In this document: piece by piece, positions 9,302 to 64,000 of the stretch | How the letters are laid out: every line of letters begins with the position of its first letter | Position numbering within the stretch: position 1 is the first letter of the stretch | Virus record (IMG/VR): IMGVR_UViG_3300027742_000001 | Coordinates: 27,914 to 91,913 of that record | DNA: 64,000 nucleotides | DNA from: a virus | Strand: one strand, 5' to 3' | Program-made: the position numbers and the translations under genes | Notes under the pieces: model-generated | Seen by the model: the letters and a program-made list of their open reading frames with translations, nothing else | Database searches by the model: none | Told to the model about the DNA's origin: nothing

Positions 9302-9520
9302 ATGAAATTAAAAGTTAAAGTACAAACATTTAAAGATAGTGGAAAATTCTATGATGAATGGGAGCATGAAGTTATTACAGATAATCCTATTGCTTGGTAT
9401 GAAGTTATTGAGGATATTAGGGAGCTGAAAGAAAAAGGTAAACTGCCTCAAAGTAATATGACTTATGTTGTATCAGAAAGTCTTTGTGGTAATTATGGTT
9501 TCCCTCAAATGATTAAATAA
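9302..9520 (+). CDS. hypothetical protein
   Basis: RBS; FKDSGKFY motif seen in small phage proteins. Confidence 0.7.
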   Translation: MKLKVKVQTFKDSGKFYDEWEHEVITDNPIAWYEVIEDIRELKEKGKLPQSNMTYVVSESLCGNYGFPQMIK

Positions 9521-9528
9521 GGAGAAAT

Positions 9529-9840
9529 ATGAAATTACATGGTGTTATAAAAGATTACTTAAAAGAATTAAGAGAGAAAACTAAAGATAAAGGTATTAAA
9601 GGGTACATTATTTTAGATAATACTTATGATTTATACCCTTTAATAAGTATCACTAAAAAGAATGTTTATTATTTAAAAGATAAAGAACTCATAAAGTTAA
9701 GTTCACAGGGTAGAGTAAAAGGGATTTATGAAACAGAAGATGAAGCAATAGTGTTTTTGAAAGAAGCTAAATATAAACTAATTGAATTACATAATAGTAC
9801 AGATTATGCTATAAAAAATATAGAAAGGCAAATTAAATAA
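9529..9840 (+). CDS. hypothetical protein
   Basis: RBS plus ORF. Confidence 0.7.
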   Translation: MKLHGVIKDYLKELREKTKDKGIKGYIILDNTYDLYPLISITKKNVYYLKDKELIKLSSQGRVKGIYETEDEAIVFLKEAKYKLIELHNSTDYAIKNIERQIK

Positions 9841-56003: not shown

Positions 56004-56330
56004 ATGAAAACAATTAGAACAGATAGAACAAATAGATTTAAAAAAGAACATAAAACAATTTGTAAGATTTCATTAGGAAATTCTTTCAGTATTTATTCAG
56101 AAGAAACTCTTGAAAAGGTTACTCAATTAGATATTAAGGAAAATGACTTTGTTGTACTTTATAATATAGCTTTCGGTGGTAAATTTGTAGGTAAAATTAC
56201 TCAAAAGAACCCTTTTCTTAACTTGAATGAAAATAAGATAAGAAATATTAAACCAAATGTTCAAAAAGGTATTATTTGTAGAAAAGCAACTTTAATGGAT
56301 AGATTTTTAGATAAAATGGGGTGGCTATAA
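56004..56330 (+). CDS. hypothetical protein
   Basis: RBS plus ORF. Confidence 0.7.
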   Translation: MKTIRTDRTNRFKKEHKTICKISLGNSFSIYSEETLEKVTQLDIKENDFVVLYNIAFGGKFVGKITQKNPFLNLNENKIRNIKPNVQKGIICRKATLMDRFLDKMGWL

Positions 56331-56863
56331 TGGTTATTTTTCTTGGTGTATTTCTAATTTCTATAATATTTTTTATGTTGATATGGATGATATTAGCTTT
56401 ACTTAATGTTGTTAGTAATAATGAAGAAAAAATTATAATACCTATCTTTGTTACAGCAATAATTATAGGTTCCCTTTTTGTTTATAATAATTATAAAAAT
56501 AGAGAACTTAGAGAAAGGTCTTTTAATACAACTGAATTTAATATTTATAGTATTGAAAGAATATCTTCAATAGAGGGTAACTTTGTATTAGGTACAGGTG
56601 GTATTTCTGAAAAACAAAATTATATATTCTATATCCAAAAAGAAAATAAAGCAAAAGTATTAAGTAAAATTGAAGCTTATGGAACAGAGGTTTTCGAAGG
56701 GGATTATTCACCAAAGATTGTAAAAACAGAATGTATACCTAGTATAGAATTTGATTGGGGCATAGGAACAACTTTACCTAATTATTCTAGTTGTTGGGAT
56801 TATAAAGATAAGTATCAAATATATGTTCCTAAAAATACAATTATAAAAAATATGAAATTATAA
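56330..56863 (+). CDS. membrane protein (2 TM plus soluble domain)
   Basis: GNFVLGTGGI...YQIYVPKNTI pattern common in phage membrane proteins; TAATG-coupled start at 56330. Confidence 0.7.
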   Translation: MVIFLGVFLISIIFFMLIWMILALLNVVSNNEEKIIIPIFVTAIIIGSLFVYNNYKNRELRERSFNTTEFNIYSIERISSIEGNFVLGTGGISEKQNYIFYIQKENKAKVLSKIEAYGTEVFEGDYSPKIVKTECIPSIEFDWGIGTTLPNYSSCWDYKDKYQIYVPKNTIIKNMKL

Positions 56864-59186: not shown

Positions 59187-59421
59187 GGTCTTTTTAGTCC
59201 TTTTTTAATTTTTTATTCTAGTGAGTTTTAAAAAGAGGGGGCTTTTTGGGTGAGGTTAGTGGGGTATTCTTTTTTGAGTATCCTTTGTGAGAAGGTTTCA
59301 AATGGGTTTGTTAAACGTGGTTTGTTTGATAATTGTGTAGGGGGTTGTTTGATTGGTGTATTTCTTAAAGTTAGCTTAAATAGGTATTTGGGTTTAATAG
59401 TTATATTTGGGTCGGTACAGA

Positions 59422-59536
59422 TGATAACAATTATCAATATCCGTGTATCCTCCCCCTATGATAACAAAACTAATTATCAAAACCAATAAAACAAAACTTA
59501 TTATTAACCAATTTAATAAACGATACTTATTATCAA
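59422..59536. promoter_or_regulatory. cluster of Fur-box-like operators
   Basis: TGATAACAATTATCA (59422-59436), TGATAACAAAACTAATTATCA (59459-59479), CGATACTTATTATCA (59521-59535). Confidence 0.6.
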
Positions 59537-59620
59537 TACTAATTAAACAATCTATCATAACATAATCATACAGTACATCTAAAAAATATTATAATTTAAG
59601 CTTTATTTTATTAAAAAGCC

Positions 59621-59649
59621 TTGCAATTTTATCTAAAAGAGAGTATAAT
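59621..59649 (+). promoter_or_regulatory. canonical strong sigma70 promoter
   Basis: TTGCAA-17 bp-TATAAT. Confidence 0.8.
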
Positions 59650-59678
59650 AAATAAAAAACAAAAAAGGAAAAAACAAA

Positions 59679-59969
59679 ATGAAAAGTTATCTACTAAGAA
59701 AAAATGATTTATATATCAAAACTGAATTGAAATATGGAGATATAGGATTTATAATAAATATAGAAAAAGTAAATTTAAGTGATGTTAAATTAAGTAAGTA
59801 TCAATTAAACAAGCTTAGTAATAAAGATTATTTTATATCTTTAAATAAAGTAAGTACAATATTATTAAATAAAGAAAATGTACTAAGTGAAATTATTTAT
59901 AATAATTCAAAAGATAAAAAAGAATCAATAGAAAATTTTAAAAAAGATAATAAAATCTTATTTATTTAA
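59679..59969 (+). CDS. hypothetical early protein
   Basis: Follows the strong promoter; AAGGA RBS. Confidence 0.65.
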   Translation: MKSYLLRKNDLYIKTELKYGDIGFIINIEKVNLSDVKLSKYQLNKLSNKDYFISLNKVSTILLNKENVLSEIIYNNSKDKKESIENFKKDNKILFI

Positions 59970-60017
59970 GTTAACTTTAGATATAATTAACAAACAAAAA
60001 CATTAAAAGGAAACAAA

Positions 60018-60623
60018 ATGAAAATAGAATTAACATACAGCGAAACAAAAGAGCTTTTAAACAATGGAGTATCTAAAGAAGATATTAATTACTTTACTAA
60101 TGGAACTAAATTCAGCACAGATGCGATGGATGACTTTATAGAGTTAATTAAAAATAGAATTGATAACGATAATTTTACAAATGTTACTGAGATGATTAAC
60201 ACTTTAAACGATATCTCTATTGATGACTTCTTTGAGTTAACTTCAGATGGTTTTGCCGAATCAATTAATAATGTAGATGATATTATAGTATTATCTGATT
60301 ATATAGACACTATAAGAGATAATATCCAAAAAGAGTTTGGAGGTATTTATAATGATTATACATTTCAGCCTTCAGAAGATGGAGGGATATATACAGAGAG
60401 TAACATTTTAAAAGAGTTTGATTTTGGTTTACTAACAGATTTTATTAATTGTACAGCAGTAATAGAAATTAGAATAGACTTAAGACCTTCTTGTTATTCA
60501 TATGTAGGACTTCATGTTATTAACGATAATAACAAACAAAGTATGTTAGGAGAATATAACTATCTACATTTTGAAGTTTTAAGTGATGGTAGTTTAGACA
60601 CTCCAACTTTAGAAAGTATGTAA
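60018..60623 (+). CDS. acidic hypothetical early protein
   Basis: Own promoter (tttaagttaactttagatataat) and RBS. Confidence 0.75.
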   Translation: MKIELTYSETKELLNNGVSKEDINYFTNGTKFSTDAMDDFIELIKNRIDNDNFTNVTEMINTLNDISIDDFFELTSDGFAESINNVDDIIVLSDYIDTIRDNIQKEFGGIYNDYTFQPSEDGGIYTESNILKEFDFGLLTDFINCTAVIEIRIDLRPSCYSYVGLHVINDNNKQSMLGEYNYLHFEVLSDGSLDTPTLESM

Positions 60624-60711
60624 GAAACAAACATGAAAAGAAAAGTTTTAAAAACAATAGCTAAATTAGATTTATTAGTTATAAAATATGGTAAAAAGTT
60701 TTTATAAAACA

Positions 60712-61087
60712 AATTAAACAAAAACAAATAAAAAGGATAAAACAAAATGGAAGATTTATTTAGTATAACAGGATATGAGGAAATCAATCATATAAAGTTA
60801 AACGATGAAATATTTGATAATGGATTATATGAGTATAGAATTGAAAATAGAGTTGACTTTATTGATACTTTAATAGATTGGATTAGCGAGGCTACACAAT
60901 GCAAAGAAATTATGAAGGAAGATTTAAAGTACCTTATATGTCTGGAGGATGAGTTTATTTTTTCTTCAATTAGTACAAATGAGTATATTGCAAAAAGTGA
61001 GGACTTAGAACAATTTAATGGTATATGTAAAGAGTTGTTAGAATTAAACAAAAACAAATAAAAGGATAAAACAAAATGGAAGATTTA
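60712..61087 (+). repeat. 46-47-bp direct repeat of a translation-initiation region
   Basis: aattaaacaaaaacaaataaa(a)aggataaaacaaaatggaagattta at 60712-60758 and 61042-61087. Confidence 0.85.
60747..61061 (+). CDS. hypothetical early protein
   Basis: RBS; acidic ORF. Confidence 0.75.
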   Translation: MEDLFSITGYEEINHIKLNDEIFDNGLYEYRIENRVDFIDTLIDWISEATQCKEIMKEDLKYLICLEDEFIFSSISTNEYIAKSEDLEQFNGICKELLELNKNK

Positions 61088-61252
61088 ACAAAAGAACAAA
61101 TTTGGAATTACATAGTTGAGTATAACATCGCAACAGAAGAGGAATTACAGTTAATAACACAAATAAATGGTTATAATGAAAATAGTTTAAATGATGTTAT
61201 TTATGCTAGAACAGGTTATAATGATATTGCACAATTAATGGAGGAAAATTAA
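61076..61252 (+). CDS. small conserved phage early protein (58 aa, not in the ORF track)
   Basis: IATEEELQLIT.INGY...LNDVIYARTGY. Confidence 0.75.
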   Translation: MEDLTKEQIWNYIVEYNIATEEELQLITQINGYNENSLNDVIYARTGYNDIAQLMEEN

Positions 61253-61254
61253 TC

Positions 61255-61365
61255 ATGAAAAAAATTAAAGAAAGTAATTATCAAAGAGAGCTTAGAAAGA
61301 AAGCTTTAAAAAAAGAAGTTAAAGAAAAAAGATTAAAAGTAAGATTAAAATATAAAGGATATTAA
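61255..61365 (+). CDS. small basic peptide (36 aa)
   Basis: GGAGG RBS; K/R-rich ORF. Confidence 0.45.
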   Translation: MKKIKESNYQRELRKKALKKEVKEKRLKVRLKYKGY

Positions 61366-61366
61366 A

Positions 61367-61636
61367 ATGGATACTAAAGTATTATTAATTAAAAAAGGGC
61401 ATATTAACTCAACAGGTGCAACACTGCCTATGATTGAGGATAATTTAAAAACAACTTTTAAAAGCCTTGATTATATGGAGGGTTTTTTAGATGGGTATTT
61501 ATTCGATAATTATTCTTTATTGTCCTTAAGTGAATATGAAAAAAATATAAATAATTTCAATAATGAAGATTTAAGAAATAAGTATTATATTAAATTTGTT
61601 TATATCGAGGTTATTTATAATTATGATGGAGACTAA
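61367..61636 (+). CDS. hypothetical protein
   Basis: RBS; followed by hairpin ggaata...tattcc. Confidence 0.65.
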   Translation: MDTKVLLIKKGHINSTGATLPMIEDNLKTTFKSLDYMEGFLDGYLFDNYSLLSLSEYEKNINNFNNEDLRNKYYIKFVYIEVIYNYDGD

Positions 61637-61736
61637 ATATCTAAGTATCTTTATAGGGAATATTTTTATAAGTATTCCTTGTTAAGGATATATTCCTTAA
61701 ACAATTTAAACAAACAACAATTTAAAAGGGTAAAAC

Positions 61737-62240
61737 ATGAAAAGAGAAACTATAACAACAGTAAATTTTGGGGGCTTTTATGAATCAAGTCATAGCTATA
61801 ATATAGATAATTATATTGAAGATAGAAATTTAGAGTTAAGTGATACAGAATATAAAGCCTTAGAGATAGAGTACTGTAAAGAGTACATTAATAAACTTAA
61901 TTATTATATTGATACTAATTTACAATTTAAAAAACTTAATAGTCCATCTTATTATAATTTTAGTACAGATGTAATAGATGTAATTGTTTCAAATAAAGAT
62001 TTATTAGCAATAAGCAAATATATTGAAGAATTTATCACTAAAGAATATAAAAAAGAAATGTTAAGAGATATTATCAAAGAATATACAACTCAAAGGGACG
62101 GATATATTCCTTATTACTCTTATAAAGATTTTTTCAAAAAAGATAATAAAGCTTTGTTGTTTGAGTGTTATTTAGATTTATTGTTAAAAGAGACAGATAT
62201 CGAAGATAATATCTTGTATGATATTGATTTAAATTACTAA
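61737..62240 (+). CDS. conserved phage early protein
   Basis: FGGFYES...LNSPSYYNFSTDVI...RDGYIPYYS pattern. Confidence 0.75.
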   Translation: MKRETITTVNFGGFYESSHSYNIDNYIEDRNLELSDTEYKALEIEYCKEYINKLNYYIDTNLQFKKLNSPSYYNFSTDVIDVIVSNKDLLAISKYIEEFITKEYKKEMLRDIIKEYTTQRDGYIPYYSYKDFFKKDNKALLFECYLDLLLKETDIEDNILYDIDLNY

Positions 62241-62262
62241 AATTAAAAATAAAGGAAATAAA

Positions 62263-62472
62263 ATGGAAAAATTAACAGATAATAGAATTAATGAAATTTT
62301 AGATAGTATGAGTAAAGAAGAGTTATTGATTTTAATAGAATACTTTGAGTATTATCCAGCAGTAACAATTGAGGATGATAAATATTATATTATAGCTTAT
62401 TTAAATGATGAAGCATGTTCTATATCTAAATATGAGTTAAGTAAATATTTAACAAATAAAGAAAAAGATTAA
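62263..62472 (+). CDS. hypothetical protein
   Basis: RBS plus ORF. Confidence 0.65.
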   Translation: MEKLTDNRINEILDSMSKEELLILIEYFEYYPAVTIEDDKYYIIAYLNDEACSISKYELSKYLTNKEKD

Positions 62473-62823
62473 AAGGCTTAAGATGAAAATAACAAAAAGA
62501 AACATTAAAGAGATGAACAAAAGAGTATCTTATATTAAAACTATTGATATAAAGAGTTTAAGAAGTGGTTCTATTAGAGTTAATAAAAGTAATACATTAA
62601 CAAATAAAACATTAAATAAAACAATTTAAAGGGGTAAATTATGAAAAAATACTTAAAATATAAAGTTTGGGATAAAAATTATCATAGACCATATTATAGA
62701 TACAATAATAAAATATTTCATAACTGGATAGATTTGCATAATTTTATCAATAATAAAGTAAAATAAAAACAATAAAAACAAATACTTAAAAATCATACTG
62801 TTAAAAATCTCTTTTAAAGGGTG

Positions 62824-62929
62824 CCAAAAATAAAGGCTATTACAAAAAGTTAAATAATAAATATTGTACAAATTAATTGTATAAGATAATTTTATTTAAT
62901 GATTTATTTGTAATAGCCTTTATTTTTGG
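62824..62929. repeat. long inverted repeat (23-bp perfect arms)
   Basis: ccaaaaataaaggctattacaaa ... tttgtaatagcctttatttttgg with a 60-nt AT-rich spacer. Confidence 0.85.
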
Positions 62930-63515
62930 TTAATTTTTATTTGAGTTCTAAAGAGTTCTAAGAGTAGTAAATATATTAAAGAGTTATTTATTAAGCAATA
63001 TATTAAAAGGCTATTTATAGCTAATTATTGCTTAATAATGTACTTATATTTTATTTGTACATATAAAGGGTATAAAAGAGTTAAATAAGATATTTATATA
63101 CATATAGAGTGTATAGACTATATTTACAGTATATATTGCTTACAAAGGCTTTTATATACTAAATTTTATTAAAAGGATATGGAGCATGGAATTTATCAAA
63201 GATAACTTAATAGAGTTTATACAGTTAGTTATGTATATAGGAACTATTATTTTAATACTTGTTTTGTTATTGAATAGTAATAAGGATTAAGTAACTAAAT
63301 AATATATCTATACTAAGCTTATAAGGGCTTTTAACTGTAAAGGTATATAAACATAGCTTAAGAGGTTATTTTGCTTATATTTGCTTAGTATAGGCTTTTA
63401 AAAGGGTATTGTAATAAGATAGCTTAGTTAAATAGTTATAAATAAAATATAAAGGATAGAATATTTGTGAAAAGATTTTTAAGAAGTTCAAAAAAAGAAA
63501 AATATTATATAAAAT

Positions 63516-63563
63516 GATAATGATAATTAGTCTCAAAAAGAAATGATAATGATAATAATTCTC
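63516..63563. promoter_or_regulatory. tandem Fur boxes
   Basis: GATAATGATAATTAGTCTC (16/19) and GATAATGATAATAATTCTC (17/19) against the consensus GATAATGATAATCATTATC. Confidence 0.7.
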
Positions 63564-63759
63564 AATAATATATAGAGAAAATATATAAAACATAGTAAAT
63601 TACACAATTTGGGGAGATTTGGGAACTTTTTTGAAAAATCAGAAATCCGTTTTCAGAAATATTTTATTTAGAGATAAGTTTCAAAAAGATTTTTAGTTAA
63701 GAAAGTTTTAAGAAAAAGTATAATATAATAAATTTACAAAACAATTCAAGGAGGAAAGC

Positions 63760-64000
63760 ATGAAAGAGAACATTACAAAAGGAAAAGGTACAATAAAGTT
63801 TAAATTAAAACATTGGGAAGGGGTAACATTATTCAAGGTTATTGAACAAACAGGTTTTGAGAGAGGTTGTGGAGAGATTTTTAAAGGTAGTAATGGTTGG
63901 GGTATTATAAGTAAGGATGCTACTGAAATTTATGAATCTAGGGATAGGGTATATATTCAAGGTTTAAACCCTATATACGATAATTCTACTGCTTCAGTAG
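63760..64000 (+). CDS. hypothetical protein (5' part, runs off the window)
   Basis: Promoter ttaagaaagttttaag...tataat and AAGGAGG RBS; frame open to the window end. Confidence 0.7.
   Translation, partial: MKENITKGKGTIKFKLKHWEGVTLFKVIEQTGFERGCGEIFKGSNGWGIISKDATEIYESRDRVYIQGLNPIYDNSTASV

Follow-up and report, generated by a model that had tools for sequence, protein, structure and literature searches.

Why would a phage keep sequences that resemble binding sites of the host iron regulator Fur on both sides of a block of small, apparently early genes? The question is raised by the final 64 kb (the window, in whose numbering coordinates are given below unless noted) of a 91,913-bp IMG/VR viral record, IMGVR_UViG_3300027742_000001. 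A first-pass annotation of the window had listed three Fur-like operators at 59422-59535 and two further boxes at 63516-63563, and had proposed that the host regulator may gate early transcription or DNA transfer through them, or be recruited to shield the injected DNA ends. We suggest, with a probability of roughly 0.4, that the palindrome at 59422 (site A) and the pair of boxes at 63516/63545 (site B) may be docking sites for a dimeric Fur-family repressor of the host, placed at the two borders of the early block.

Two forms of the Fur consensus were scored, the 19-mer GATAATGATAATCATTATC and the 7-1-7 form TGATAATnATTATCA; these may not be the forms used by the host of this phage. Site A contains the palindrome TGATAACAATTATCA (59422-59436), which agrees with the 7-1-7 form at 13/14 positions and, on the minus strand, with the 19-mer at 16/19. 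At site B, the 19-mers at 63516-63534 and 63545-63563 score 16/19 and 17/19, respectively, and in 7-1-7 form the sites starting at 63521 and 63550 match TGAKAAT-N-ATTMTCA at 13/14 and 14/14 positions. The box coordinates and match counts of the first-pass annotation, including the 29 bp between the starts of the two right-hand boxes, were all correct on recheck. Genome-wide (91.8 kb), these are the only three matches of at least 16/19 (starts at 59423, 63516 and 63545), against a mean of 0.18 in 300 dinucleotide shuffles, none of which reached three; equal-scoring boxes are thus not frequent in this AT-rich genome. Shuffling each of the non-coding regions alone gives a probability of at most 0.003 for any match of at least 16/19, and therefore the matches are not explained by local AT-richness. 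The same two loci (59422 and 63516/63545) are the top two clusters of TGATAAT/ATTATCA density in the genome, and in the weaker class there are 39 matches of at least 14/19 where 14.7 are expected. The whole-genome scan also bears out the earlier impression that the other promoters have no comparable boxes, and strong sites are confined to the two borders of the small-gene block, in spots 4.1 kb apart. Of the three operators proposed on the left, only that at 59422 stands as a strong site, those at 59459 and 59521 being at background level. Elsewhere in the window, positions 56482-56496 read TTATAATAATTATAA, which agrees perfectly with the Bacillus-type PerR 7-1-7 box; it lies inside a coding region, in very AT-rich DNA, and is probably a chance occurrence.

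Site A is preserved in a relative. Protein-based searches produced two usable relatives, G001 and G002, and otherwise only very distant contigs. G001 is a 72-kb contig whose large terminase is 90% identical; it is collinear with the present genome at 70-78% nucleotide identity. With a 5.5-kb query, the site A core (AGATGATAACAATTATCAATATC, 59419-59441), which contains the 15-bp palindrome, is the sole significant DNA match to G001 besides short leader and promoter pieces, and the best of four weak blastn matches (E = 6.6e-7). Written for both phages, the core reads AGATGATA[A/G]CAATTATCAATATC, with 22 of 23 nucleotides identical, and the genes immediately flanking it are not homologous between the two phages. 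The general layout is also the same: a G-rich stretch, the palindrome, a C-run, half-site repeats, a TTGACA-17-TATAAT promoter (12/12, the equivalent of the early promoter described below) and small genes follow one another in this order. At the corresponding position, G001 therefore carries a small-gene block of its own, with no protein homologs to the block studied here. Its sole site of at least 13/14 also falls in that block, 730 nt deeper, which speaks for the docking proposal; the contig stops there, and the comparison covers the site A side.

The surroundings of site A are compositionally peculiar. The non-coding stretch at 59187-59421 is GT-rich and C-poor on the plus strand (G 65, C 14), and is G-rich in G001 too. 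Right after the palindrome comes, on the plus strand, the C-run CCTCCCCC (59449-59456), whose longer counterpart in G001 is CCTCCCCCCCCCC, and downstream of it the DNA is AC-rich and G-poor (G 10, C 33) for about 200 nt and includes TTATCAA-type half-sites in the same direction. The strand composition (59187-59650) therefore flips from GT-rich to AC-rich exactly at the palindrome, in G001 as well, and such a flip might be the trace of a physical end, of a terminal-repeat boundary or of an origin. The two weak boxes on the plus strand in the AC-rich part (59459-59535) belong to the same-direction half-sites, which are spaced by 30-35 nt; box 2, TGATAAC-N7-ATTATCA (59459-59479, 14/19), and box 3, CGATACTTATTATCA (59521-59535, 12/14), are not unusual individually. 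The TTATCAAAAC sequence in them is also the common leader of the TTAAG-type promoters of this phage, and because of this resemblance we regard both as probably the phage's own motif, not Fur sites; of these boxes, G001 keeps solely the ATTATCAAAA half. Extended symmetry at site A is absent, and a long hairpin centred on the palindrome was rejected on its fold z-scores (+0.5 and +1.5); nor does a hairpin account for the flip in composition. An inverted TTAAG-N6-TTAAG pair at about 59365-59385, 40-55 nt to the left of the palindrome, has no usable -10 element and is oppositely oriented in this genome and in G001.

Site B lies in a gene-poor, repeat-rich region (62767-63759; 994 nt, 20% G+C) with seven families of direct repeats. 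It consists of two tandem 29-nt units on the plus strand, R1 and R2 (AAATGATAATGATAAT-A-TCTCAA, 63512-63569), which are identical at 23 of the 25 leading positions and at 86% of positions over the full unit. The boxes at 63516 and 63545 are thus one tandem duplication, and the strong events to be explained are therefore two, not five. Readings of the repeats as IHF, DnaA-box or CodY sites were tried by eye and rejected, each requiring at least two mismatches. At the other end of the region, directly after the last small gene, there is a long inverted repeat (62824-62929) with 42-nt arms, 81% complementary, and a 22-nt spacer, which might serve as a terminator or be a structural palindrome comparable to those in Repeat Region 3 of phage T5. 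A promoter of the phage type, TTAAG-N6-TTAAG-N11-TATAAT (63697-63729, plus strand), precedes the gene that starts at 63760. A third repeat region is found close to sites A and B, just past the end of the window (L008:1770-2330 in genome coordinates): directly after a gene for a YonV-like P-loop protein, 560 nt of G-poor DNA (G 32, C 124) carry the degenerate repeats CTCTAAAC, TCTCAYWAA and CCTTTTAA.

Between the two sites lies the putative early or pre-early block, 3.1 kb on the plus strand with about 11 small ORFan genes (59679-62766). Its first gene (ATG at 59679) is preceded by a TTGCAA-17-TATAAT promoter (59621-59649, plus strand). This had been called the most canonical promoter of the window; by score it is not, since it reaches 10/12 and eleven matches elsewhere in the genome reach 11/12, none of them obviously gene-proximal, but among gene-proximal promoters it is the only one with a true, TTGACA-type -35 element. 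That the block alone is headed by such a promoter would fit early transcription by the unmodified host polymerase. Promoter scanning as such is uninformative in DNA this AT-rich (51 matches against 43.6 +/- 5.8 in shuffles). No Pfam or PHROG family was detected for the genes of the block or those flanking it, and no family match to the T5 pre-early genes A1, A2 and dmp; the flanking genes, having no Pfam or PHROG assignment, include none related to iron, as the first reading of the locus had said. Many operons throughout the genome are headed by promoters of another class, TTAAG-N6-TTAA(T/G)-N11-TATAAT (for example at 1964, 6107, 8438 and 63697), with a common leader TATCTTATCAAAACAA; the class is present in G001 and G002 as well, and looks like activator-dependent middle promoters, such as those of T4 MotA.

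The genome as a whole (91.8 kb, 27% G+C) appears to be that of an uncultured, distantly T5-like phage. Its large terminase matches, among cultured phages, those of the T5-like group (Demerecviridae) alone, at a weak 22-25% identity; close cultured relatives were looked for with the DNA polymerase and the capsid protein and none was found, and blastn of the region against GenBank phages gave no match. The late genes (lysis, tail, head, terminase) occupy an arm of about 31 kb on the minus strand, and the other 60 kb or so are on the plus strand; a search of the genome for tRNA genes returned zero. The annotated "direct terminal repeat" was rejected, as the exact 99-bp overlap of the ends is the signature of a circular assembly, because of which window position 64000 is not a physical end. 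A protein identical to that encoded at 56321-56863 (P0001) is also encoded by another contig, which at 98,051 bp exceeds the present genome, counted without its overlap, by about 6.2 kb; were that contig the same phage assembled with its two terminal repeats, about 6.2 kb would be the length of the repeat. As to the host, the nearest cellular homologs of the ribonucleotide reductase are alphaproteobacterial (about 50% identity), a weak pointer, and the endolysin combines GH108 and PG_binding_3 domains, with a Helicobacter prophage protein as the top match (29% identity). This domain combination we take as a weak hint of a Gram-negative host. Such pointers do not establish the Campylobacterota host that the first-pass annotation had presumed. 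No Fur homolog was found among the phage-encoded proteins, and a phage-encoded Fur was accordingly rejected.

Two sets of observations on other phages bear on the docking proposal. First, an exact scan of IMG/VR with a box of the site B type, ATGATAATGATAATNANTCTCA, found 30 loci (about 14 lineages, grouped by eye) against 4 for the reversed pattern used as control. Blastn showed no kinship of these loci to the phage in question, and the five tested for a related terminase had none; the box-bearing contigs are phages of 24-53% G+C with unrelated proteins. The sequence around most of the matches appears to be non-coding, and some loci form arrays of 8-10 sites. Three of them, L268, L269 and L272, have 9-10 sites within about 230 nt (L268:3310-3525), and in L268 the array is followed by a C-run, an A-rich tract, a TTGACA-17-TATAAT promoter and the large terminase gene. 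In L254 (5710-5945), eight sites precede a promoter-like element and an open reading frame downstream; in L282, boxes and a G-run are followed, about 200 nt downstream, by a terminase-family gene; and in L267 and L270, a C-run and two boxes occur about 250 nt before a TTGACA promoter. Runs in which at least 8 of 10 nt are G or C have a frequency of only 0.03-0.4 per kb, and at least five lineages have one within 150 nt of a box. That unrelated phages carry this motif in comparable non-coding hubs is most simply accounted for by a conserved host protein, for which Fur would be the obvious candidate. Other patterns were scanned as well: a scan of IMG/VR with the site A core gave 12 matches, of which G001 alone is related; site A together with the C-run gave five unrelated high-GC matches in JGI metagenomes, three of which (L164, L166 and L168) look like bacterial palindromes of the Fur-box type; and two spaced GATAAT repeats occur in at least 120 unrelated IMG/VR contigs, many of them from giant-virus bins.

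Second, the same placement is seen in two cultured phages. In T5 (AY587007.1, 121,752 bp; L288), sites with at most one mismatch to TGAKAATNATTMTCA occur at 233, 9579 and 9614 and in the right-repeat copies of these, and nowhere in the roughly 101 kb of unique DNA; the reversed control gives none. The site at 233 (233-247) is a perfect match to the strict consensus, lies inside dmp and is 233 nt from the left end. Those at 9579 and 9614 fall in copies 3-4 of direct repeat C and in palindromes G-I, slightly left of the 7.9% nick, and the site cluster spans 9468-9640, within the injection-stop repeats. In Vibrio phage Ceto, both unique near-perfect sites are within the terminal repeat, of about 8.3 kb. 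In T5 and Ceto alike, it is the terminal repeat that contains the pre-early DNA.

In the mechanism that we consider, dimers of a host Fur-family protein would dock at both borders of the small-gene block, which host RNA polymerase would read first. The sites would act as fixed landing pads on early DNA, which is possibly the first DNA into the cell and possibly a terminal repeat, rather than as operators that occlude promoters; since they lie 90-200 bp from promoters, they are most likely not ordinary operators. Such pads might form a boundary or roadblock delimiting the early unit, or, alternatively, an anchor or pause site like the injection-stop region of T5; as a side effect, they might soak up, or respond to, iron-loaded Fur. 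The shielding of DNA ends envisaged in the first-pass annotation finds no support in the analysis.

Several facts weigh against this proposal. In this genome, all strong boxes are clear of -35 and -10 elements, and no iron-related gene was found among the neighbours in Pfam and PHROG searches; in Escherichia coli, 83% of predicted Fur clusters overlap a promoter (PMC2189734). The one difference in the G001 core, A to G, drifts off the Fur consensus (to 12/14 and 15/19), and the flanks conserved in G001 (AGA..., ...ATATC) extend past a Fur site. Nor are positions constant between this genome and G002 (41.6 kb, large terminase 43% identical), where the only strong site is a perfect TGATAATTATTATCA, the presence of which in itself favours the proposal; the equivalent region here has no box. 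The left half of that site is the -10 element of a TTAAG-type promoter directed toward terS/terL, and a second TTAAG-type promoter, on the opposite strand, reads through it, so that the overlap with a promoter expected of a Fur operator is found in G002 and not in this genome. Once the duplication is counted, only two independent strong events are left, and the motif was picked post hoc among many known consensus sequences. Finally, the T5-like phage pVp-1 has one 1-mismatch site, located next to small genes in a 0.9-kb gap that contains no gene, and PM135, also T5-like, likewise has one, with one also in the control, which amounts to no signal.

The most durable alternative, in our estimate a doubtful one, is that a protein of the phage itself binds the sites, or that they form a cis element for DNA handling, their resemblance to Fur boxes being incidental. 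They could be origin iterons for the YonV-like P-loop protein, or be recognized by terminase or at a terminal-repeat boundary. R1 and R2, which have AT-rich flanks, are indeed tandem direct repeats in an AT-rich, repeat-laden kilobase free of genes, with the P-loop ATPase gene 1 kb downstream; yet there are only two of them, where origin iterons would be phased and number three or more, and the 29 bp from one to the next do not make up full helical turns. Site A would suit a DNA-handling role in that it sits at the sharp GT-to-AC flip beside a C-run, where conserved genes give way to non-conserved ones, and has a conserved core longer than a Fur site, but it shows neither a hairpin nor extended symmetry. 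The boxes of G002, L268 and L282 are just upstream of terminase genes, the usual location of cos or pac, and the rare G/C runs beside boxes in several lineages could be cohesive-end-like. Against this reading, the motif is common to unrelated phages with unrelated proteins, and Pfam and PHROG searches detected no DNA-binding family among the neighbouring phage genes.

Less probable, and in our view unlikely, is that the sites are functionless AT-rich palindromes that arose by chance, one of them duplicated locally in tandem. A genome of 27% G+C invites such palindromes, the strong independent events number just two, the motif was selected after looking, and boxes 2 and 3 are at background; moreover, with the relaxed half-site TGAKAAT the excess shrinks to 3 observed against 0.58 expected, a count of 3 being reached by one of 60 random genomes. 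Chance would not, on the other hand, readily keep site A in G001 inside otherwise unalignable DNA, nor gather all strong sites into two non-coding spots 4.1 kb apart; it is further opposed by the local shuffles and by the same placement in T5 and Ceto.

Classical iron-dependent repression, as the first-pass annotation had envisaged, is highly improbable. In this reading, early promoters would be blocked by holo-Fur, so that iron status would gate early transcription. In its favour, the matches are as good as those of bona fide operators, the G002 palindrome overlaps a -10 element and a weak promoter-like element at 63479-63511 would place R1 near +1. Against it, the boxes sit off the promoters: upstream of the early -35, the nearest weak box lies at about 85 bp and the site A palindrome at about 185 bp (85-200 bp for all boxes of this border), the next real promoter (63697) comes 135-180 bp downstream of R1 and R2, and promoter-like matches such as that at 63479 are no commoner than in shuffles.

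Host docking at the early borders is best judged against systems that are already known. As matches, the present sites compare well with chromosomal Fur operators: they score 17/19, 16/19 and 13/14, or 14/14 when the common TGAGAAT half-site is allowed, and R1 and R2 each contain overlapping sites 6 nt apart, as in footprinted clusters (PMC2189734). They differ in lying off promoters and away from iron genes, in a virulent phage, and in being candidates called from sequence. Another point of reference is the Fur boxes carried by phages before cargo genes, of which stx1 is a further example. Our literature search for Fur boxes on phages found them only in such positions, as before sitABCD on lambdoid phages (PMC6969025). 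There, too, host Fur sites are borne by phage DNA, but they control iron or toxin cargo from its promoter, whereas here they flank an early block. The IMG/VR arrays (L268/L269/L272, L254, L267/L270, L282) share with the present locus the non-coding hub with Fur-type palindromes, often with a G/C run nearby and, at 50-250 nt downstream, a promoter of the sigma-70 consensus, and often adjacent to terminase or first genes; with up to 8-12 sites, they are stronger examples than one palindrome and a tandem pair.

The closest comparator is the left terminal repeat of T5, with its Repeat Region 3 or injection stop signal (repeat C copies 1-4, palindromes E-J). A preprint on this region in 25 phages credits DnaA boxes, and mentions neither Fur nor iron (10.1101/866236); our literature search found no paper naming Fur for the injection-stop region. 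There are obvious differences. The T5 repeat is proven and 10.1 kb long, and here there is only the 99-bp assembly overlap; homologs of A1, A2 and dmp were not detected; the sites span 4.1 kb, compared with 9.4 kb in T5; and the T5 site at 233 is intragenic, whereas site A is non-coding. The likeness lies in the arrangement. In both phages, small, fast-evolving genes apparently read by the host polymerase come before about 1 kb of repeat-rich DNA without genes, here 62767-63759, a large untranslated repeat region being a T5-type trait; the sole near-perfect Fur-type sites flank the block (233 and 9579/9614 in T5, 59422 and 63521/63550 here). The large terminase of the present phage also appears to be distantly T5-like, at the 22-25% identity given above.

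The present phage, with three sites, would be a thin example alone, but it adds an independent and distant T5-like lineage to a pattern. Should Fur truly bind these sites, the injection-stop repeats of T5 would gain a concrete candidate host factor, and lytic phages could be said to read or exploit the iron sensor of the host. The most general form of the idea, that T5-like phages, and possibly many others, put Fur docking sites on either border of the DNA that is first to enter and to be expressed, with metal-loaded Fur serving as the long-sought brake or anchor of two-step injection or as a pre-early insulator that couples infection to host iron, is a very speculative extension. In our own scans of this phage, T5 and Ceto, Fur-type sites flank the DNA that is, or appears to be, expressed earliest in these virulent phages, and iron genes are absent there.

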